Shown here piece after piece: positions 6,127-64,000 of a stretch of 64,000 nt of DNA. The stretch's first letter is position 1; every line of letters begins with the position of its first letter. Under the pieces are notes generated by a model that was not told the origin of the DNA, searched no databases, and saw only the letters and a program-made list of their open reading frames with translations. Source of the DNA: a virus (Duplodnaviria; Heunggongvirae; Uroviricota; Caudoviricetes); the IMG/VR virus record IMGVR_UViG_2681813421_000002, positions 22,586 to 86,585 of that record. One strand, written 5' to 3'. The position numbers and the translations under genes are program-made.

Positions 6127-7317
6127 TTAATTTTTTATGTACTCCATGAACATTTTTTCAGCTTGTGCTGGTGGTGTTCCAGCCATGACAAGCGCATCAA
6201 TGAACGCCTGCTTCTTCAGTGCGAACTGATCGGCAAGGCGTTGCTGAAGTTCCTTATTTTTCTGTTTCTCACGTTGCAAGGCCGCTTCTTTTGCAGCCGC
6301 CCGTTTTTTCTGTGCGTCTGACAACTTTCTGGCCCTGGTCAATTGGTCACGTAGCTTGTCGATATTGCCGTTGTCCTTTGCCAGTTTTGTACTTAAAGCT
6401 GCCTGGCGCTTCTGATAGAGCCTCCATTCGCGTTTGGCGGCTTCAACGTTTGTTTTACTGCTTCGATTGCGATTAAACTCCTTCTCGTCTTCTTTTGAGA
6501 AGTGTTTGGTTGTACGGCGGCGATCGTCACCAAATGCAATTTGCGTTGCAGCCTTTTGTAGCGCACGAGCAATACTCATTTGCCAACTGGCGGACTGTAA
6601 CCGCGTCATTGAGTGGATCACGTGTTTACAGGCGACGCCTTGCAGCTTCGGGTTGCGAACTTTTGGATAGGCGTATTCTTTTGGCGGGGCCAGGGCAAAG
6701 TTACCCGCAGTAGCGATGTAACGATACCAGTATTGATGACGACCACAGTCACAATCGAAAGACACTCGCCCGGCGCACAGTGATTTAGTGATTTTGAGAG
6801 CTGATTTATCGTCTTCTGCGATGTCATCGACCATCTGATCCCATTCTTCAAAGCGTATCCGGACGATATGGTGCTGGTGGACGGATATATCCGATGCTTC
6901 TACGCGGATATTAATCACGTTGTGGCGAAGAGATACGGGGGTAGCTCTTTTGATACCAGATCCGTCATCCACGGCGTTATTTGCACGCTTAATATCGATT
7001 GCCTGGCTGGATGCCACCAGCTGGGCGTATGTGATGCCAGCCGTCTTGCTGTCATATTTTTCGCGTGTTTTACTCCGTAGCTTTTCGAAACCTTTCAGGT
7101 CGTCTCGCGTGAAGAACGTGCCGCCTTTTTTCTTCCCTAACTTGAGAATATCTTCGGCGGATTTGTTCCTCAGTCCACCTGGCGTCAGCGTCCGGTGAGC
7201 TTGTCGGCGCTTACGGGTTTGTTCTTTCCTGATAATCTCGAATATACGCGTGAAGTCCTTAGAGGACAGACCGTCAGTGATATAGCGCCCGTCCTGGTTT
7301 TTCAGGAAATCAGGCAT
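6127..7317 (-). CDS. Hypothetical protein with SWIM-like zinc-finger motif and C-terminal basic coiled-coil
   Basis: 396 aa; CDCGRHQYWY...CKHVIHSM (CxC-x-C-x-H pattern), K/R/A/Q-rich C-terminus. Confidence 0.5.
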   Translation of the reverse strand: MPDFLKNQDGRYITDGLSSKDFTRIFEIIRKEQTRKRRQAHRTLTPGGLRNKSAEDILKLGKKKGGTFFTRDDLKGFEKLRSKTREKYDSKTAGITYAQLVASSQAIDIKRANNAVDDGSGIKRATPVSLRHNVINIRVEASDISVHQHHIVRIRFEEWDQMVDDIAEDDKSALKITKSLCAGRVSFDCDCGRHQYWYRYIATAGNFALAPPKEYAYPKVRNPKLQGVACKHVIHSMTRLQSASWQMSIARALQKAATQIAFGDDRRRTTKHFSKEDEKEFNRNRSSKTNVEAAKREWRLYQKRQAALSTKLAKDNGNIDKLRDQLTRARKLSDAQKKRAAAKEAALQREKQKNKELQQRLADQFALKKQAFIDALVMAGTPPAQAEKMFMEYIKN

Positions 7318-7639
7318 TTTCTATCTCCGGTTCCGCGCTTGCGTAATCACGGATCTTGTTCCTCAGCCATGCCACATCAGGAAGAGTTAACGTGGTCCCT
7401 GCGGGCATTTCTTCCATTTCTGACTCATGGCCCACCAGCACCCGGAATACCCAGCGCAAATCTGCATTGCCATACGCCCTGTAGGCTGCAAGGTCTGAAC
7501 GATATACTTCATCAATCTTTATCGTGTACTGGAAATTATCAGAGTGATACTCCGATACCCGCTTAATCATTTCCTGGTGAAACAGCGCACGAAAAATATC
7601 GTCTTCAATGTACCTATCGTCGAGTCTGCTATAGCCCAT
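7310..7639 (-). CDS. Hypothetical protein
   Basis: 109 aa ORF overlapping start of downstream gene by 8 bp. Confidence 0.4.
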   Translation of the reverse strand: MGYSRLDDRYIEDDIFRALFHQEMIKRVSEYHSDNFQYTIKIDEVYRSDLAAYRAYGNADLRWVFRVLVGHESEMEEMPAGTTLTLPDVAWLRNKIRDYASAEPEIENA

Positions 7640-14938: not shown

Positions 14939-15699
14939 GGCTCCGCATGAAATTCTCCAAATTTTCTGAGTTGGTGAATCGTATTTTGTCCAATAACCAC
15001 AGCCATCGTCGCGATATGGATGTAACGATCGTTGTTCATTCGCCTGGCAGCATTGGTTCAACACCCTCAGTTGAGGTTCAGTCAATTCACGCTGGTTTTG
15101 ATTGGGATTCCGGGAAAGTGCTGATTTTCCCAGCACAGCCACTGACCACGCTAACACCAGAACAGATTACTGATATTACTGATAGTGTGCGCAAAGGTCA
15201 GTCCTGGCACGCATATCAGGAATACAAGAAGCATAAAGAGCAGTTGGAAAAATTATCGATTGAACTTGATGCCGCAAAACAGCGCATTGCAGAGCTGGAG
15301 GGTAATCGCGCGGCGCTGGCGGCGGAGAATGCAGGGCTGAATAAATTTATCGCACAGAGTTGCTACGTGTTTGATGGCGAGCAGGATGAAATATCTGATG
15401 CGTATATCTGCGCAACAGATGGAGGGATGCCGCAAACACCAGCCACCGATGCTTTTCTGGCTGAAGTGAAGACTGAAGCACGCAAGGAGGGCGCTTACTT
15501 TGTGGCGAACAGAATGCTGGCTGCCTGGGAAGCTGGTTTTATTGATGATACTGCGAAGAACGCCGCGGATATTGCCCGGATGATTCTTACCTCTACTGAG
15601 TTTATGGCTAATGCGCCGGAAGGCGATTTTGACCGCTCATTCTCTGATGGCGTTCTCGAAGATATCGCCGCCCAGCTTGGAAAAGGAGGCAAACAGTGA
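14935..15699 (+). CDS. Ead/Ea22-like protein
   Basis: 254 aa; coiled-coil centre and C-terminus ending QLGKGGKQ, as in 18811-19449. Confidence 0.5.
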   Translation: MRLRMKFSKFSELVNRILSNNHSHRRDMDVTIVVHSPGSIGSTPSVEVQSIHAGFDWDSGKVLIFPAQPLTTLTPEQITDITDSVRKGQSWHAYQEYKKHKEQLEKLSIELDAAKQRIAELEGNRAALAAENAGLNKFIAQSCYVFDGEQDEISDAYICATDGGMPQTPATDAFLAEVKTEARKEGAYFVANRMLAAWEAGFIDDTAKNAADIARMILTSTEFMANAPEGDFDRSFSDGVLEDIAAQLGKGGKQ

Positions 15700-16744: not shown

Positions 16745-17433
16745 TCCAGGCTATGCATGAAATGAATTTATATAGCCGTATTGATGGTTCTGGCTACAGA
16801 AACATATGGGTTGTTGGTGATCTGCATGGTTGCTACACCAGACTGATGTCCGAACTCCATCGTGTGGATTTTGACCCGACGCAGGATTTACTGATATCGG
16901 TTGGCGACCTTATCGATCGCGGTACTGAAAATGTCGAATGTCTGGAACTATTGCAGATGCCCTGGTTCAGGGCAGTAATGGGGAACCATGAGCGGTTGAT
17001 GCTTGATGCGTTAAGTCCTGATGGCAACGTGAATAACTGGCTAATGAATGGCGGACAATGGTTCTTCATGCTGGACACTGATCAGGAAATATTAGCCAAG
17101 GCGCTGGTGGAGCTGGTAAAGCGTCTGCCATATATCATTGAGTTGAACACCGGGCATGAAACTATCGTTATAGCCCATGCCGACTATCCAGGTGGAGAGT
17201 ACCAGTTCGGTAAGGATGTGTCGCTTTTTGATGTTGTCTGGTCGCGCAGTCGCGTCGGTGATTCGATAGATGGCATTGGTGGAGAAATCACAGGCGCAGA
17301 TCGCTTTATCTTTGGGCACACACCGGTACGAAGACCAAAAGCATACTGGAATCAGCACTACATAGACACGGGCGCGGTTTTTTGCGGAAATCTGACGCTA
17401 ATGCAGGTGAAGGGAGGGCAGCTTAAAGTCTGA
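16741..17433 (+). CDS. Ser/Thr protein phosphatase (metallophosphoesterase, lambda-phosphatase type)
   Basis: Motifs GDLHG, GDLIDRG, GNHE and downstream His residues; start taken at MIQAMHEM. Confidence 0.75.
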
Positions 17434-39076: not shown

Positions 39077-40283
39077 ATTTCCCGTAAAGATCTTCTACAC
39101 CCCCATTCTTCTTATCCCATTCGTTCGCCCATACCCGGCAAGCGTCAATGATTTCCTGACGACGATCTCCTTGCATGAACGGAATGCTTTCATGGAAACA
39201 GCTTGGAATGCAGGCCACACTGAATACAGTATCAAACTCCGTCTGCTTGATTGCCTCCAGCGTCTCCGGACGCATTTTTAATTCATCGATTGGCGCATCC
39301 TTAGAGTCCATAATCCGGCGATATAAGCGCGGAAAATCCGTCTCCAGGTACGCCATAATTTTATCTGCGAGACATTCGTCTATGTCGGTATTCCAGTCCT
39401 TTTCGAAGCCCGGCAGGCGATAGTAAAGCGGCGTTCCCCATACCGATGGGATCACATCCATCGTTAACAGGCGATTAGTTCTGATTTGTTGATGGTAATT
39501 AGCCGTCAGCAGTGCTTCGCCACGCTGCCCAGTTTCCGCAACCAGGCCGTGCGGATACTCATGGATGTAGGCAATGGCATCCCTTCCATCATACATAAGT
39601 GGAAATGTCTCTGGTCTTTGTCCCATGCCACAAGCACGGTTCAGATCGTGACCAAGCTGTGAGCACTCTCGCTTTAATGTTTCGATAATGCTCTGCGCTG
39701 TAGCCAACTTTTTACGCAGTGTGACGCCTTCGCCTTGATAATCAATGCATTGCTGATTGAGCTTGGTTAAACGCTCTTTTAGTTCCCGGCGCTCTCTTTT
39801 CAGCGTGCGGTTATCCTTCTCCGCAACATCCAGCCGCTTTGTCAGGCTTGGCGGATAGTCTTTTTTGTAACGGTTCAAATCGGCTTCGGCAGATTTACGC
39901 AGTGTATTTGCCTGTTCAAGACGCGCTTCCAGATTGCCGATCTCATTACGCATATTCGCGGCAAATTGATTAACTGCATCACCCAGGCTTTCAACTGTCG
40001 CTGATACGCCTGTGACTTGTGAAAAACGGATCAAGCCATCATTAACGGCTTGTTGGTATTCCTCAAACTGATCCACCAGCTTATTGTAATCAACTGCCCC
40101 ATCATCAAGCAGCTTGTTGATTTCCGCCACCAGGTTATCTGTAGTGGCAATGACACTCTCGTGCAGTCGCTTTGACAGGTCATCACCCGGATTCCGTTTC
40201 TGTATAAGAGCGATTTGTGTGCGCAGCGTTTCAATTGCTGTCGAGATAATTTCCAGATTAGAAGTATCAGTGTGTTGACTCAT
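39075..40283 (-). CDS. Hypothetical protein with N-terminal coiled-coil, operator-flanked
   Basis: 402 aa; long heptad-like N-terminal half, globular C-terminal half. Confidence 0.5.
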   Translation of the reverse strand: MSQHTDTSNLEIISTAIETLRTQIALIQKRNPGDDLSKRLHESVIATTDNLVAEINKLLDDGAVDYNKLVDQFEEYQQAVNDGLIRFSQVTGVSATVESLGDAVNQFAANMRNEIGNLEARLEQANTLRKSAEADLNRYKKDYPPSLTKRLDVAEKDNRTLKRERRELKERLTKLNQQCIDYQGEGVTLRKKLATAQSIIETLKRECSQLGHDLNRACGMGQRPETFPLMYDGRDAIAYIHEYPHGLVAETGQRGEALLTANYHQQIRTNRLLTMDVIPSVWGTPLYYRLPGFEKDWNTDIDECLADKIMAYLETDFPRLYRRIMDSKDAPIDELKMRPETLEAIKQTEFDTVFSVACIPSCFHESIPFMQGDRRQEIIDACRVWANEWDKKNGGVEDLYGK

Positions 40284-55177: not shown

Positions 55178-55358
55178 GAGTCACCGCGAAATGTTTTCAG
55201 TTTGCGGCAGCATAATCAGTATGTGATTTTTGATGATGGATCTTTTCAACTAGAAATATTGGCTGGCCCCTCTCGTAACAAAGTGAAGAATAAAACTTGA
55301 ATATGCACATTGTGCGCATTAAGATTGAAAAAGTTGACCACTTTGCTGCGGAGAAATC

Positions 55359-55663
55359 CCATGAAAAGCTCTTTAATTAATTCCAAATTACACCAACTTG
55401 CTATCAAAAATCGAGTTCCTGCATGGTCGGTTTACATGCATATCAGCCGCGCATGTCTGAGCAATGAAAACATTTACAATCTGCAAATTCTAAGCCGGGA
55501 AGGCAGGACTTTGTTTAGCGTTGCAGAGGATTCCTATAAGGCCTGGGATATGCTGGATGACGCGTTAAGCCAATACGCGCAAACAGAAGAATGCCAAAAA
55601 GAATGGGCCAGGTACTGTGATGAAGGGATGCCATGCTGCGGTCTATTCGGCGCAGCTCTGTGA
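55359..55663 (+). CDS. Hypothetical protein (first gene of two-gene plus-strand cassette)
   Basis: Start taken at MKSSLINSK; Cys-rich C-terminus. Confidence 0.4.
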
Positions 55664-55675
55664 ATCGATTCAACG

Positions 55676-55939
55676 ATGATATACTTCGTTGCGAATCACA
55701 GCATTGGCAAAGGGCATATTGTGAAACAACTCCCACCAAACACCCCGGAAACTATAATTGAAATCCGCCAGCGAATGGGGCTAACGCAAACGGAGTTAGC
55801 CCACAAAATGGGGTATCAACTCCGGGCTTGGCAATTCAAAGAAGATAGAAATAAACCGAGACGCCTTATGGCTGGTGAATTTGAGTACCTGTTATTGCTT
55901 GCTGGAGAGCATCCTGAATTTATTCTTACACCACGCTAA
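55676..55939 (+). CDS. XRE-type HTH DNA-binding protein
   Basis: 87 aa; IRQRMGLTQTELAHKMG HTH. Confidence 0.5.
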   Translation: MIYFVANHSIGKGHIVKQLPPNTPETIIEIRQRMGLTQTELAHKMGYQLRAWQFKEDRNKPRRLMAGEFEYLLLLAGEHPEFILTPR

Positions 55940-55960
55940 AAAAACCCGCCTGACGGCGGG
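55938..55960 (-). terminator. Rho-independent terminator (strong on minus strand, weaker on plus)
   Basis: CCCGCC-TGAC-GGCGGG with a 7-T run on minus strand. Confidence 0.55.
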
Positions 55961-55973
55961 ATTATCAATCATA

Positions 55974-56267
55974 TCAATTCACATCAATGTCTTGATATGA
56001 TTCGCCAGTATCGTCTTCGTCGTCAGGATCTCCTTCCACCTCTGGCCACTCAACCTCCCAGCCAACAGTTTCCAGGCTCCGCAGAACAAACACCCCATCG
56101 GCATGAATGGTATTCACGATCCCCATTGCGGAATTTGTGTTGATAAAGCGTAAATCTTGCGCAATATTTTCTTCCGAAATATCGCCTTCAAATATACGCA
56201 ATGTGCCGTCATCAGAGCATTCAACAATCCCTCTAATCCCAGCGGGACTCACAATGCTATACTTCAT
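55974..56267 (-). CDS. Small acidic protein at distal end of Dar operon
   Basis: 97 aa, D/E-rich C-terminus. Confidence 0.35.
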   Translation of the reverse strand: MKYSIVSPAGIRGIVECSDDGTLRIFEGDISEENIAQDLRFINTNSAMGIVNTIHADGVFVLRSLETVGWEVEWPEVEGDPDDEDDTGESYQDIDVN

Positions 56268-59200
56268 TTTGCAACTCCTTCATACATCCCAAGAAAAATT
56301 CCAGCACGCCGTCATTGTTTAATACAGAGTTAGTCGCCTGCTCCGGATCGGCATACATCTGCAAGGCCATAGAAAAAATCTCAGTCGCCCTGCAATTGCT
56401 TAATGCAGGTGGCTTTGATATAAATCTGCCGCTGACAGAACTTACCGTATTTTCCATATAAATTTTAGACATATATCCATGACTTAGGTCGGTTCGCACC
56501 AAATACTCAGCACTGCCACGGCTACCAATATTATGATAAGAAACTTTACCGTTAGTTTTTGATTTAATGAAGGCTTTGGCCCTCTCCAATAGATGGGGAT
56601 TTGAATGTTCTATATGGTGACCTATTTCATGCCATAATACACGCTCGTGATCACTATTAGCATCAATTGTTATATTCCCATTTCGACTTGCAAAAGCACG
56701 AACATTGTTCTTGTGGTTAATATTTTTTAATGTAGATAAAGTCCCTCCTGAAATAATATAGGCTTTTTCAATCGTCTCGCGAATACTGTATGCTTTACGG
56801 GAGAAAGTTTCATTATCGTGACCACTTAACTGCTCTGCTTCATCAGAAATAGCAATCCCACGACTCCATTCCTTAGACTGGTCATGTGACACATTTGACG
56901 ATTCAAGAATCATGTCAAATGCGGCTCTGACTTTTTTATGTACTACATTTTCAAGCGCATTAGGATAGGCTTTTTGTCCACGTGTTAATGAAGCTATTTC
57001 ATATAGTTCTGCTTGCAAGTCTTCCGGTATGTCCAGATTAAAAACAAGCATTTTTTTCAGATCATATCCAATCCCATGATCATTCTGGTGCAAAACCTCA
57101 GCAAGGTAGTCAGTGAGTTTTTCCTTATTTGACCTAACTTTATTGATTTGTTCTATAGTAAAGTCAACACGCTCCTTGATTCCGTAATATGAGGAATGCT
57201 CTGCTAATTCCACTATCTCCTTAAGCCTGACAAGTGTCTCAATATACGCATCAGCGATCTCCTCTGCCGTTAGTTCAGAGCTAACTCCGACACTGGCTGT
57301 TATTTTCCTACCAGCCGCCATAATATCGTCGATATTATGCAAGCTCTTTTTGAATAACTTCAAAGTATTTTGGATTATGCACACCATCTCTTCTGCGCTT
57401 CCAGCTTTATTCATTTCCTTTCTAAATCTTAAAGCTGTTTTCTCTGCAATAGACGCTGGAGATTTTAAATAGTTACCTAACCAAACAAGACAACCATTGC
57501 GCAATTCATCAATACTAAAGTCATCAGGAATATGTTTTGCTGCATTATGTAAAACACGTATAAATTGTTCAGCGGGCACGCCTTCTTCTGATATGTTGCA
57601 AAACGTTTCAATATCACAATCAATATTTCTTTCATCTGCGAGCGAAGGAGCTTCATCTCCTTTTTCAATCGCGTCACGCAGTGCGTTAGCATAAAAATTG
57701 CTGCGTTGATAAGACAATAACATCGTTGTTAACACAGCGTCGCTGTATCCATAACGTTTAGCCCACTCCTTAATCTCATTAACGGTGACATTGCGAATAT
57801 AAAAACCAAGTTCCAAAAATACATTGCGCTTTATTTTTTTTGCGGACTCCTTAATTTTTTCTGACACCTTCACGATTCGGATCAAGTCCTCCACGCTGGT
57901 CGCATCAGCAATTAGCTTTGAAATGTATGGTTCGACATCTCCTGAAACCGATTCAAACATGGCGAAATTAAGCCCTTTACCTTCGCCATACTCAGCCTCA
58001 ATTTCATCAGAAACGGCAGATAAAATGCTACGCAGATCGACATCTCCGCCGCCGAACATATCGCCTAACGCTTGTTGCTGGTGAATAAGTTCATCGTTAA
58101 TTTTTTGCGCCAGTTTCTTGAAAGCTGCCCCCATTCGCTTAGCGCTTCGGTTGTTGGCAACAATAAACAGAGCAAGCGCTTCTGCTTCCGGAGTGCTATC
58201 TCCAAACAATCCACGCTGTGCGATCACCTCTTCTACTGCCTGACCGTTATCTTTTGCTTCACGAACAAGGTTAATTGCTTCCTGTAGCGCGGCAATAGCC
58301 TGTTTATCCAGACCATTCAATTGCTCTATACCGTCTACCAGTCCGGTTACCGTGTCATGGTGAACATCACCTGAAAGCGACTGCATTTGCGCAAAATCGC
58401 TGGCTGCCGTATTTAATGCGGTAAGAATGTTACGCATTTCCGGATCTGGCTCTTCCGCCACCAGCCGAACAAGCCTTTCATCCTTGTACGCTTTGGCAAA
58501 AATTGCATTCTGGATGCGGTCGATAAGTTGTTTCGTTGGACGCCCATCGGCAGTAAGCAAACCTGCCGTCGCCGTATCACCTATTTCGCGCAAAAACGCA
58601 CGAATAAACGCATCATTGGACCGCGCCAGTAGATTTCCATCATCTGAAGGATTAAATAGCGCCATGACGCTCTCAGTGAGAAATTGCGCATCCGCATACG
58701 CTTTTTCACTTGCAGCCATCTCTTGCAGATCGCTGATGTTTGAATCACGGGCAAATTGTGCGCGGTCTACATCTGTGAGTCTTTCTCGCACCAATACGGG
58801 CATAGACATTTGTGAAATGTCGTCAGGATTCAGACCAAACTCTTTTGCATGATCGATCAGGTACTGGCGATATTCATCCGCCTGCCCTTGCTCATAGGCA
58901 CGCCAGATACCCATGCTCCTTCCGTTGCCGGATTCAACAACGTTGTCCGGACCAACTATCGGCGCTCCGTGGCTGCTCATGCCGGAATCCGTTAATTGTG
59001 CCGGGCGTAAATTGGAGGCAATACGGTTAACCTGGAGTTTGCTTGATAGCCGTGTACGGTCACGTGGCTGGAGTTCTTCCGGGAAGGCCGGATTAATCGT
59101 ACCGTCAAGGTTGTTCGAAATGATCAGACTGCTGGCATCAACGACCTTAAAAGCCGTCTTTACCTCTGCCCCTTTACTGGTGACTACGTAACTACTGCGC

Positions 59201-59298
59201 CCCTGGCGTGTTTCTCGCCTCTCTAATGAAGAAACCAGCGCAATAACACTGTTAATGTCTGCTGCTTCGGATAGCGCGGAAGTAACTGACTTGTTCAA
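56257..59298 (-). CDS. ddrB: DdrB-like large virion-associated antirestriction component with C-terminal HExxH motif
   Basis: 1013 aa; position and size match P1 ddrB; WHEIGHHIEH near C-terminus. Confidence 0.5.
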   Translation of the reverse strand: MNKSVTSALSEAADINSVIALVSSLERRETRQGRSSYVVTSKGAEVKTAFKVVDASSLIISNNLDGTINPAFPEELQPRDRTRLSSKLQVNRIASNLRPAQLTDSGMSSHGAPIVGPDNVVESGNGRSMGIWRAYEQGQADEYRQYLIDHAKEFGLNPDDISQMSMPVLVRERLTDVDRAQFARDSNISDLQEMAASEKAYADAQFLTESVMALFNPSDDGNLLARSNDAFIRAFLREIGDTATAGLLTADGRPTKQLIDRIQNAIFAKAYKDERLVRLVAEEPDPEMRNILTALNTAASDFAQMQSLSGDVHHDTVTGLVDGIEQLNGLDKQAIAALQEAINLVREAKDNGQAVEEVIAQRGLFGDSTPEAEALALFIVANNRSAKRMGAAFKKLAQKINDELIHQQQALGDMFGGGDVDLRSILSAVSDEIEAEYGEGKGLNFAMFESVSGDVEPYISKLIADATSVEDLIRIVKVSEKIKESAKKIKRNVFLELGFYIRNVTVNEIKEWAKRYGYSDAVLTTMLLSYQRSNFYANALRDAIEKGDEAPSLADERNIDCDIETFCNISEEGVPAEQFIRVLHNAAKHIPDDFSIDELRNGCLVWLGNYLKSPASIAEKTALRFRKEMNKAGSAEEMVCIIQNTLKLFKKSLHNIDDIMAAGRKITASVGVSSELTAEEIADAYIETLVRLKEIVELAEHSSYYGIKERVDFTIEQINKVRSNKEKLTDYLAEVLHQNDHGIGYDLKKMLVFNLDIPEDLQAELYEIASLTRGQKAYPNALENVVHKKVRAAFDMILESSNVSHDQSKEWSRGIAISDEAEQLSGHDNETFSRKAYSIRETIEKAYIISGGTLSTLKNINHKNNVRAFASRNGNITIDANSDHERVLWHEIGHHIEHSNPHLLERAKAFIKSKTNGKVSYHNIGSRGSAEYLVRTDLSHGYMSKIYMENTVSSVSGRFISKPPALSNCRATEIFSMALQMYADPEQATNSVLNNDGVLEFFLGCMKELQNEV

Positions 59299-62316: not shown

Positions 62317-62752
62317 CCCAGTCTCCTTTACGCTTTTCGATCGTAAACTGGCGCTCTATGCAGTCATTGATAGGGAAAATGCGATAAAGCGGATTCAGTC
62401 GGCAGTTACCGTTAGTCAATGTGACTTTCAGATCCCACTTCGTTGGCTCAAGATATTTCGTATCGATGAGCAAATACTCTTCTCTCTCACCGCGTTTTGA
62501 GGCGTCAACTGGTCGCGTTTTCCCTGAAATAACCACAGATGGATTTTTCAGGTCTTGCAACCAATATTCGATTTGAGCATTGCTGACCCAGCTTCGCTTA
62601 ACACGTAGCGAAACAGGAAATGCTATAGCGGATTCTTTCACTACAGCGTCACCAATACTCAAAATCTCAACACTCTTGCGACGAAAAATGAAACGGTCAA
62701 TGATGGCAACAAATGCCATGATAAAAATGAAATAATTTCCAAAGTTACCCAT
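62306..62752 (-). CDS. lydB: LydB-like antiholin (positional call)
   Basis: 148 aa with N-terminal hydrophobic segment, downstream of holin-like gene. Confidence 0.45.
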   Translation of the reverse strand: MGNFGNYFIFIMAFVAIIDRFIFRRKSVEILSIGDAVVKESAIAFPVSLRVKRSWVSNAQIEYWLQDLKNPSVVISGKTRPVDASKRGEREEYLLIDTKYLEPTKWDLKVTLTNGNCRLNPLYRIFPINDCIERQFTIEKRKGDWDVK

Positions 62753-63078
62753 TATTTCTCTCCACCTTTTCCCCCATTCGCTATTACGCTTAAGAGATTC
62801 AAGACGTTACTAGCTCTGGACTTCAAGCCCTGTAAAATTTCACTACCGTTGTTACTGGCAATCAGAACAACGCAGAAAATGATACCTTCAGGCCATTCTT
62901 GGCTAACCGCCACCCCATACCCCGCAAGCCCGGCTGTTACCGCAGTAAACAATTCACTCGCAAGATTGAGCAGGGACGCAGAAATGCGCCCGTCTCTAAC
63001 TCCGAGAAGGAATACGCCGGTTCCACTTAGTAGGGATGTTATGACTACTACAGCCAGATTTTCATAATCTGCAAACAT
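62752..63078 (-). CDS. lydA: Holin-like membrane protein (LydA-like)
   Basis: 108 aa with three hydrophobic helices and charged C-terminus. Confidence 0.5.
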   Translation of the reverse strand: MFADYENLAVVVITSLLSGTGVFLLGVRDGRISASLLNLASELFTAVTAGLAGYGVAVSQEWPEGIIFCVVLIASNNGSEILQGLKSRASNVLNLLSVIANGGKGGEK

Positions 63079-63181
63079 ACCCCTCCAGAAATAACATCTA
63101 ATGCGCCACTAACTTAGTCAGTTTGTTATTTCCTTACAGGACATCTTCTAGGATCGTATCCTTAGCATACAAGGGAGACAT

Positions 63182-63220
63182 ATGCTTATTGGATACATTC
63201 GCATATCAACAAATGATGAT
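63182..63220 (+). pseudogene. Remnant 5-prime end of a second serine recombinase gene
   Basis: Encodes MLIGYIRISTND with its own AAGGGAG ribosome-binding site, then loses homology; the frame runs antisense into cin. Confidence 0.4.
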
Positions 63221-63294
63221 GCGCCGCGCGATAAATGCACTCTATCTTGTGCGATAAATGGCATCCACGCGGCGTTTCATTATTTGAAAAAGAA

Positions 63295-63867
63295 TTACAT
63301 TTCAGGTTGCGTTATGACAGTCCCAACAGGGTGATAGCGGTAGATCGTTGACAGTCCAATATCATAGATAATTGCCAGCCGCTTTCTGTCATACCCTTTC
63401 TGGAGCAATCTTGCGATCTGCTCATGCTGCTCCTTCGTCAGTTTCGGGCGACGTCCTCCAACTCTTCCTTGTGATCGCGCAGCAGCCAGTCCTGCCAGCG
63501 TGCGCTCAACTATCAGTTCACGCTCCATTTCTGCCAGTGCACCCATCATATGAAAAAAGAACCTTCCCATCGGAGTGCTGGTATCGATTGAATCCGTCAG
63601 ACTGCGAAAATTGACACCTTTTGCGCGTAGCTCTTCTGTGAGAGCAATGAGGTGTTTCATTCTTCTACCCAACCGATCCAGCTTCCAGACCACCAATGTA
63701 TCCCCTCTTTTAAGGCACTTTAAAGCGCGTTTCAGGCCTGGTCGTTCCGACTTGGTTCCGCTCATTTTGTCCTCAAAAATCTGTTCACATCCTGCGCACA
63801 TTAATGCATTGCGTTGCAAATCTGTGTTTTGGTCATTTGTTGACACACGTATGTAGCCAATCAGCAT
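63295..63867 (-). CDS. cin: Cin-type DNA invertase (serine recombinase)
   Basis: 190 aa; MLIGYIRVSTNDQNTDLQRNAL...GDTLVVWKLDRLGR...C-terminal HTH; closely matches P1 Cin/Gin/Hin family. Confidence 0.85.
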   Translation of the reverse strand: MLIGYIRVSTNDQNTDLQRNALMCAGCEQIFEDKMSGTKSERPGLKRALKCLKRGDTLVVWKLDRLGRRMKHLIALTEELRAKGVNFRSLTDSIDTSTPMGRFFFHMMGALAEMERELIVERTLAGLAAARSQGRVGGRRPKLTKEQHEQIARLLQKGYDRKRLAIIYDIGLSTIYRYHPVGTVITQPEM

Positions 63868-64000
63868 TAAAAATACTCCCTTTTGAGTGGTTAAAGTACT
63901 GAGATAATGTGGGGAGGATTTGAGAGATAAACGTTGGTTTGGGGGAAGGCTCGGCGCTGCCCGTTGGTGTACCGGTTCCATGGCCCACCGCCACACCGCC

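Follow-up and report, generated by a model that had tools for sequence, protein, structure and literature searches.

The cin gene of a D6-like phage-plasmid is cut at the right terminus of a BcepMu-like transposable phage

This locus raises the question of why a phage-plasmid with a complete DNA invertase gene should also carry, 78 bp away and facing the 3' end of that gene, what looks like the start of a second one. The window, i.e. the whole stretch of 64,000 nucleotides that was analysed, has in its last 8 kb the minus-strand lydA-lydB-hdf-darA-ddrB block of a P1/D6-like phage-plasmid. A lydA-type gene heads the resident lydA-lydB-hdf-darA operon, which belongs to a D6-like backbone. Next to it is a plus-strand ORF of 50 amino acids (63182-63334) that starts MLIGYIRISTND (in a fuller reading MLIGYIRISTNDDAPRDK) and is preceded by a ribosome-binding site, GGGAG, at 63173-63177. 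The complete invertase follows on the minus strand (63295-63867) and has the N-terminus MLIGYIRVSTNDQ. The features of the region, in order of position, are:

62752-63078, minus strand: lydA-type holin gene (ORF list, and the 'holin' annotation of D6 under the match).
63079-63181: resident lydA-cin intergenic region of 103 bp, collinear with D6 and including the GGGAG of the stub.
63182-63216, plus strand: psi-cin, the first 35 nt (11 codons and 2 nt) of a D6/P1-type invertase gene, delimited by nucleotide identities and by the end of the D6 alignment.
63182-63334, plus strand: chimeric ORF of 50 amino acids (ORF list), which begins in the stub, crosses the phage terminus and ends antisense to the last part of the invertase gene.
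63211-63216: AAATGA, the presumed insertion target hexamer, judged by the 6-bp duplications at complete phage copies; it would presumably have been duplicated at the left end, now lost.
63217-63294: right-terminal 78 bp of a BcepMu-like transposable phage, starting 5'-TG; the same terminus is found elsewhere.
63230-63237 and 63253-63260: GATAAATG boxes, at offsets 14-21 and 37-44 from the tip.
63295-63867, minus strand: intact serine DNA invertase of 190 amino acids (Pfam Resolvase, 2e-50; HTH_7, 1e-12).
63922-63947: 26-bp invertase crossover site of the gix/cix type, GAGAGATAAACGTTGGTTTGGGGGAA, the same as the site of Phi2 in EC958.
63948-64000, plus strand: first part of what is probably an invertible tail-fibre cassette, truncated by the end of the window and 98.9% identical to the B771 prophage up to that point.

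The stub and the neighbouring invertase share 11 of their first 12 amino acids. This is far beyond chance, as the best six-frame match to the stub 12-mer in 100 dinucleotide-preserving shuffles of the window was 7/12 (mean 5.8). The stub residues MLIGYIRISTN correspond to the N-terminal catalytic motif of the Cin/Gin/Hin/Pin serine invertases (GYxRVSTxxQ type, which includes the active-site serine) and are found in a position syntenic with cin. At the nucleotide level the 35 nt are identical to the cin pseudogene of a sibling plasmid (L014) at 35/35 positions and to D6 cin at 33/35, compared with 29/35 for the adjoining intact gene and 28/35 for P1 cin. Two statements of the first-pass annotation, that a second serine invertase gene had left a remnant here and that this remnant is not a simple duplication of its neighbour, are thus borne out, and the 12-codon match proved significant in the shuffles. 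The end of homology had been placed after codon 12, which is nearly right; the exact end is nucleotide 35 (63216), where the D6 alignment stops too. Codon 12 (GAT) is made up of the GA of cin and the initial T of the foreign DNA; that it specifies aspartate, like the resident codon GAC, is chance.

The stub is continuous with 280 bp of D6-like upstream DNA, and nucleotide identity to D6 is 96.6% across 62900-63216. Both P1 and D6 have cin at this same spot; the gene diverges from the lydA operon and is read in the direction of the C segment, and cixL overlaps its 3' end. Because of the nucleotide identities, the continuous D6-like DNA and the synteny with cin, the stub is identified as the resident gene and the complete gene as the newcomer. 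Beyond the stub the ORF is read-through of foreign DNA, including an antisense overlap with the 3' end of the invertase gene (63295-63334), and no Pfam family was found for the chimeric product of 50 amino acids. With 35 nt left, the stub has neither a complete Resolvase domain nor the C-terminal HTH. Nothing marks the 50-aa ORF as a gene; the stub is a gene fragment and, in all likelihood, a scar without function of its own.

The origin of the DNA that interrupts cin is apparent from the position of the break. Megablast divides the region between 63216 and 63217, with phage D6, including the start of its invertase gene, on the left and an E. coli ST131 prophage (99%) on the right. From 63217 to the end of the window the sequence is about 99% identical to the prophage adjoining aroA in E. 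coli ST131, and the 'Phi2' of EC958 is a 37-kb element between aroA and ycaL. Complete copies of this element are about 37-38 kb long; the copy in B771 splits flgJ and that in EC958 splits the start of ycaL, with 6-bp target duplications (GCCTGT in flgJ, GAAGAA in ycaL). The tips of the complete copies read TGAT…ATCA, and at both ends there are GATAAAT boxes at offsets 14-21 and 37-44, in inverted orientation, which are putative transposase-binding boxes. The terminus seen in the window, TGATGCGCCGCGCGATAAATG (common start TGATGCGCC), adjoins nine unrelated flanks in other replicons at the same base, namely ycaL, flgJ, dmsC, lplA, upaG, yehQ, fdrA, the IncI gene pilN and another position in cin. 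It follows from these same-base flanks and from the tips, boxes and target duplications of other copies that 63217 is the exact right terminus of a mobile Mu-type (BcepMu-like) transposable phage, and that it lies inside cin. Of 5426 complete E. coli genomes, 621 have this terminus (641 chromosomal places).

In complete copies of the element, records L004 and L005 annotate a DDE transposase, an ATPase of the ExeA/MuB type, Gam, Mor and Mu-type head genes; Phi2 has in addition a DUF935 portal protein and P2-type tail genes, and its head proteins are of the Mu F/G type. The Phi2-type transposase shares 68% identity with the transposases of the Burkholderia phages BcepMu and phiE255 and 98.8% with that of Escherichia phage PhiKM. 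The window holds about 0.8 kb of this phage at its very end, with one phage end and without the transposase, and the fragment can therefore no longer be mobile.

Two other copies of the element deserve mention. Phi2 of EC958 (L004 2835 and ~39874-39880) lies inside the first codons of ycaL, the GAAGAA duplication being within ATGAAGAATACT, and RefSeq annotates the start of ycaL inside the end of the prophage. The conjugative IncI plasmid pNDM5_LS003, which carries NDM-5, has the same terminus and the same invertase (WP_000904922.1) at L006 5948-6598, between pilN and the shufflon and in the usual place of pilO-pilV. This is another one-ended phage remnant beside a different DNA-inversion system.

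The complete gene of the window had been named cin in the first-pass annotation, a name that belongs to the stub. Its product is 189/190 amino acids identical to the Phi2 invertase of EC958, about 71% identical to the Cin proteins of D6 and P1 and 76% identical to the SfMu invertase, and it is the incomer. The annotation was right in seeing a recombinase-replacement junction, since resident cin is cut and a gin-like invertase of the phage is in its place, and right also in seeing a rearrangement, which is more precisely the terminus of a transposable phage. It was not right in calling the event old, as the foreign block and its chromosomal copies agree at about 99% of positions.

The incoming invertase has both the Resolvase and the HTH_7 domain, a length of about 190 amino acids and an adjacent 26-bp crossover site, as serine invertases do. 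Its placement is gin-like: it is transcribed away from the invertible segment and toward the phage end. The sole crossover site of the window (63922-63947) lies beyond the intact gene as seen from the stub, about 700 bp from the junction, and is identical to the 'Phi2_3prime' site of EC958, for which PacBio reads showed inversion of a 2067-bp segment (PMC4134206). The partner of this site lies beyond the end of the window and is seen only in the sibling plasmid p13ZX28-90 (L003, 17064-17089), where two crossover sites, 15023-15048 and 17064-17089, are inverted relative to each other. Tail-protein fragments are annotated in L003, L004 and L005 at the place corresponding to window positions 63948-64000. 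The P1 record annotates a recombinational enhancer at nt 19-90 of cin, and the equivalent stretch of the incoming gene is at about 63778-63849. Given the near-identity of the invertase to that of Phi2 and a site identical to one with observed inversion, the plasmid has probably been left with a foreign but working invertase and switch.

The transcriptional surroundings of the junction offer few signals. A consensus scan of 63000-64000 gave no sigma-70 promoter-like site in 63079-63181 and no terminator-like site. A close match to the P1 promoter LPdar was not found in the lydA-cin intergenic region, where the similarity is partial and limited to the TAACTT core; the late promoter of the lydA operon may lie here, on the minus strand, with its TAACTT core at about 63110-63118. 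Between the stop codon of the invertase gene and lydA (63079-63294) there is no terminator-like structure. The foreign invertase gene is co-directional with the holin/anti-restriction operon, which native cin was not, and read-through into lydA could occur.

The window ends at 64000, and the far junction of the foreign block is known from sibling plasmids. Identical junctions were found in 16 plasmids of PLSDB and 12 of RefSeq, with sizes of 89-96 kb, which indicates that the phage is present as a fragment only. The siblings retain about 4.1 kb of it, comprising the terminus, the gin-like invertase, the invertible segment and the 3' part of S. In p13ZX28-90, whose identity to the window is 99.4% across the final 4.6 kb of the latter, the block consists of the terminus, the invertase gene, a segment of about 2 kb, a tail-fibre assembly gene and the 3' three-quarters of S, and D6 homology returns inside S at L003:18466. 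The S protein of this plasmid is a hybrid, in which residues 4-203 resemble D6 (95%) and residues 208-829 the phage (90%). The change from one to the other occurs inside the motif AATPxAVK (…RKAATP/KAVKAAYDL…, with a slash at the switch; D6 reads …RKAATPLAVKTLHDL…). Similarity between D6 and the phage at the crossover point is at the level of the motif only, with about 17 nt of D6 identity adjoining the phage repeat.

The S genes contain tandem repeats of 300 bp (100 amino acids), each with the motif AATPKAVKAAYDLA (L003 17239-18488, L005 4537-5716). There are more of these units in the plasmid copy than in the B771 prophage, and the EC958 copy consists of pseudogene pieces. Elsewhere the window (55230-57951) and p13ZX28-90 (L003 7664-7715 and 9168-10376) differ: about 2.7 kb in the ddrB-like region of the window (1013-aa ORF at 56257-59298) are absent from p13ZX28-90, and a TnpB/insQ gene of p13ZX28-90 is absent from the window.

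The most probable course of events is that the phage transposed into cin and that a deletion between two S genes then removed the remainder. The first step is strongly supported by the base-exact terminus; for the second step it is the hybrid S gene that speaks. A BcepMu-like phage would have hit resident cin after nucleotide 35 with its right end facing lydA, bringing its own gin-like invertase and invertible tail-fibre segment, which are located just inside that end. The S genes of phage and plasmid, now in one orientation, would thereby have become direct repeats. Recombination between the two in the AATPxAVK motif would then have removed what was left of cin together with the C segment of the plasmid and about 34 kb of phage DNA. 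Because the similarity of the S genes is only at motif level, this second step would have been short-homology or illegitimate recombination and not classical homologous recombination. The outcome would be a P1-like genome of normal size with a 35-nt cin stub, 78 bp of phage terminus, a foreign invertase and a hybrid S gene that combines the N-terminus of the plasmid protein with the repeat region and the receptor-binding C-terminus of the phage protein. Headful packaging limits the size of P1-type genomes, and the deletion would have restored a genome that can be packaged by a P1-type head. We infer that the terminus arrived by transposition rather than by another kind of joining, and that insertion of the full-length phage preceded the deletion.

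Termini of this kind form at least two more junctions among the P1/D6-like plasmids. In pCUVET16-559.2 the same terminus comes after nucleotide 52 of cin. The cin start of this plasmid (L013 3043-3222) carries a 17-bp tandem duplication, ATGCTTATTGGATACAT being present twice; 111 bp of the phage end are left, and the invertase is gone, none being annotated in the 6.2-kb stretch that was read. The 35-nt and 52-nt junctions could represent two insertions or be related by a 17-bp deletion. An older junction is common to pKOr024_2 and a Salmonella plasmid, both D6-like, and to two P1-like plasmids. It has a cin pseudogene of 177-307 nt with stops, 68-73 nt of DNA and a diverged terminus, TGATG(C/T)GCCGCGCGATAA…, together with a different minus-strand invertase that has 161/190 amino acids identical to that of the window. 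Such a diverged terminus adjoins longer cin remnants in many plasmids of both the P1-like and the D6-like group. The spacer of 68-73 nt (L014 7579-7651; L015 1378-1444) is found in P1-like as well as D6-like plasmids and matches neither cin nor the phage; the 73-nt spacer of L014 scored 16 against cin and shuffles a mean of 19, i.e. it was no better than shuffled sequence. About 90 plasmids match the D6-like side only, and the one that was read, L014, has a decayed cin pseudogene and the second, diverged terminus.

Loss of cin is not restricted to such junctions. In PLSDB, 511 plasmids match D6 cin, of which 219 hold at least 80% of the gene and about 290 (P1/D6-like plasmids) have 5' pieces only, so truncation of cin is frequent and for the most part goes unannotated. 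In L016, L018 and L019 (1201 to ~1400), cin remnants of about 198-212 nt are not followed by a phage terminus and continue into tail-fibre genes; these represent other ways of losing cin.

Other explanations for the stub and its boundary have to be weighed against transposition. There is hardly any probability that the stub is a local duplication or gene-conversion tract from the adjoining invertase gene. The 11/12 amino acid identity is what such an event would leave, but the nucleotides agree far better with the sibling cin pseudogenes (35/35) and D6 cin (33/35) than with the neighbour (29/35), and the stub continues into 280 bp of D6-like upstream DNA; the nucleotide comparison refutes copying from the adjoining gene. 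A junction made by an invertase, through crossover of a proper site with a quasi-site within the 5' part of cin, is highly improbable. Cin is known to use quasi-cix sites, but on its foreign side the junction has a transposon tip instead of a crossover site, the real site being about 700 bp away. The cix-like sites that the first-pass annotation proposed to look for near the stub did not emerge above background: in 63100-63320 the best match had 9/18 consensus positions, a level reached at more than 1000 positions of the window. It is quite unlikely that the stub has been co-opted for a role in which its promoter and ribosome-binding site drive a 50-aa peptide or an antisense RNA that dampens the incoming invertase. 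In favour of such a role, the start codon is preserved along with the ribosome-binding site and the upstream region, and the ORF runs antisense to the 3' end of the invertase gene with no terminator-like site between; against this, the product has no family match, a simple scan gave no sigma-70-like promoter in the intergenic region, and stubs in other lineages vary widely in length or are decayed with stops, which argues against selection for a peptide. Co-option would in any case be compatible with the main explanation.

Transposition itself would be dispensable if the foreign block had been acquired by illegitimate or short-homology recombination with a chromosomal prophage, with the breakpoint at the terminus by chance. 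The far junction is itself a short-homology crossover, and neither predicted companion of a transposition was found. A full-length intermediate, i.e. a D6-like plasmid with the whole prophage in cin, was not found, and the transposase gene is present in five PLSDB records, none of them D6-like by size or host. A chimeric query for the predicted reciprocal junction matched none of the 5426 complete E. coli genomes. When IMG/VR was scanned for the pattern there were two matches, which on inspection were chance or unrelated, and in JGI metagenome and GTDB contigs there were none. Yet the breakpoint is the exact terminal base of nine other contexts, for which the random odds are roughly 1 in thousands, no chromosomal flanking DNA has been carried along, and two other plasmid lineages likewise end at a phage terminus. 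A chance breakpoint is therefore very unlikely. It is also unlikely that there was a single insertion of the 52-nt type, as in pCUVET16-559.2, from which the 35-nt stub of the window arose by a later 17-bp deletion in cin at the terminus. The junction of pCUVET16-559.2 minus CCAAAACACCGCTTTGC is exactly that of the window, and a single base separates the two phage ends over the 64 nt at the tip that were displayed. Such a deletion would, however, have to end exactly at the phage tip without microhomology, and pCUVET16-559.2 differs also by the 17-bp tandem duplication and the loss of the invertase. This reading is a variant of the main explanation and leaves the mechanism of transposition unchanged.

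Replacement of a Cin system by transposition and deletion, as proposed here, invites comparison with known arrangements. A psi-cin/min substitution in plasmid p15B was reportedly described by Sandmeier and co-workers (in NAR in 1991 and J Bacteriol in 1992). According to the GenBank record of P1, nt 7147-7408 of p15B are 89% identical to the cin upstream region and the first 173 nt of cin. Plasmids L015 and L020 have nt 1-177 of cin at 89% identity to P1, which is the same span as in the p15B note of the P1 record. The 177-nt type of junction is thus probably the psi-cin/min arrangement of p15B that was reported in 1991-92. Like the window, p15B is a P1-related plasmid with a truncated 5' part of cin on the lydA side, adjoined by a substituting invertase in opposite orientation and by foreign tail-fibre cassettes. 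It differs in the breakpoint, at about 177 nt compared with 35 nt here, and in the invertase, that of the p15B type and that of the window being identical at 161/190 amino acids. The substitution in the window is also much younger. The p15B-like type has a diverged terminus and 68-73 nt between pseudogene and terminus; here the terminus touches cin directly. On sequence grounds the event in the window is of the same kind as that in p15B but a different event. To our knowledge, the p15B boundary has not been described as the end of a transposable phage.

Phage Mu shares with the incoming element an invertase located between the invertible segment and the right terminus and transcribed toward the end, a crossover site upstream of the gene, a 5'-TG terminus with repeated transposase-type boxes, and target duplications. 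Here, in contrast, the transposase is by its closest match of the BcepMu type and not of the MuA type, transcription of the early genes is directed at the left end, target duplications measure 6 bp (in both insertions that were read) compared with 5 bp in Mu, and there is no com/mom between invertase and end. The donor type of the block is that of BcepMu, phiE255, PhiKM and Phi2, and Phi2 carries the same invertase, crossover sites and terminus, but the window holds only about 0.8 kb (about 4.1 kb in complete siblings) with one end and no transposase. In comparison with the Cin-C system of P1 and D6, the stub is the start of cin in its native place, and the replacement presumably also switches alternative C-termini of a tail fibre. 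Native cin, however, points toward the segment and has cixL at its 3' end, while the replacement points away and has its site upstream, and the D6-type C segment is absent here.

That a Cin system can be substituted in a P1-related plasmid, leaving a cin stub, is already known, and mosaicism of tail fibres is classical. Two points seem to be new: the tip of a BcepMu-like transposable phage forms the boundary, from which a concrete mechanism can be derived, and events of this sort have occurred repeatedly. Mosaic exchange between unrelated phages has its classic case in the modules of tail fibres and invertases, but the mechanism of joining is seldom readable. Here one boundary is base-precise, a phage tip in a truncated gene, and the other lies in a tail-fibre motif, which makes for a testable two-step route. 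The 5' part of cin, with the P1 enhancer at nt 19-90, may be a preferred target; the two youngest junctions are at nt 35 and nt 52. The gene labelled cin in the plasmid lineage of the window is foreign, and the host range of this lineage is set by a cassette that it shares with a prophage in about 11% of complete E. coli genomes. Transposition of Mu/BcepMu phages into the invertase genes of P1-like elements, followed by trimming at tail-fibre repeats, might tentatively be regarded as a recurrent route for swapping host-range cassettes, a generalisation that is possible but more doubtful than the events at this locus. If true, it would explain the invertible tail-fibre modules that are common to unrelated phages (Mu, P1, p15B, e14).
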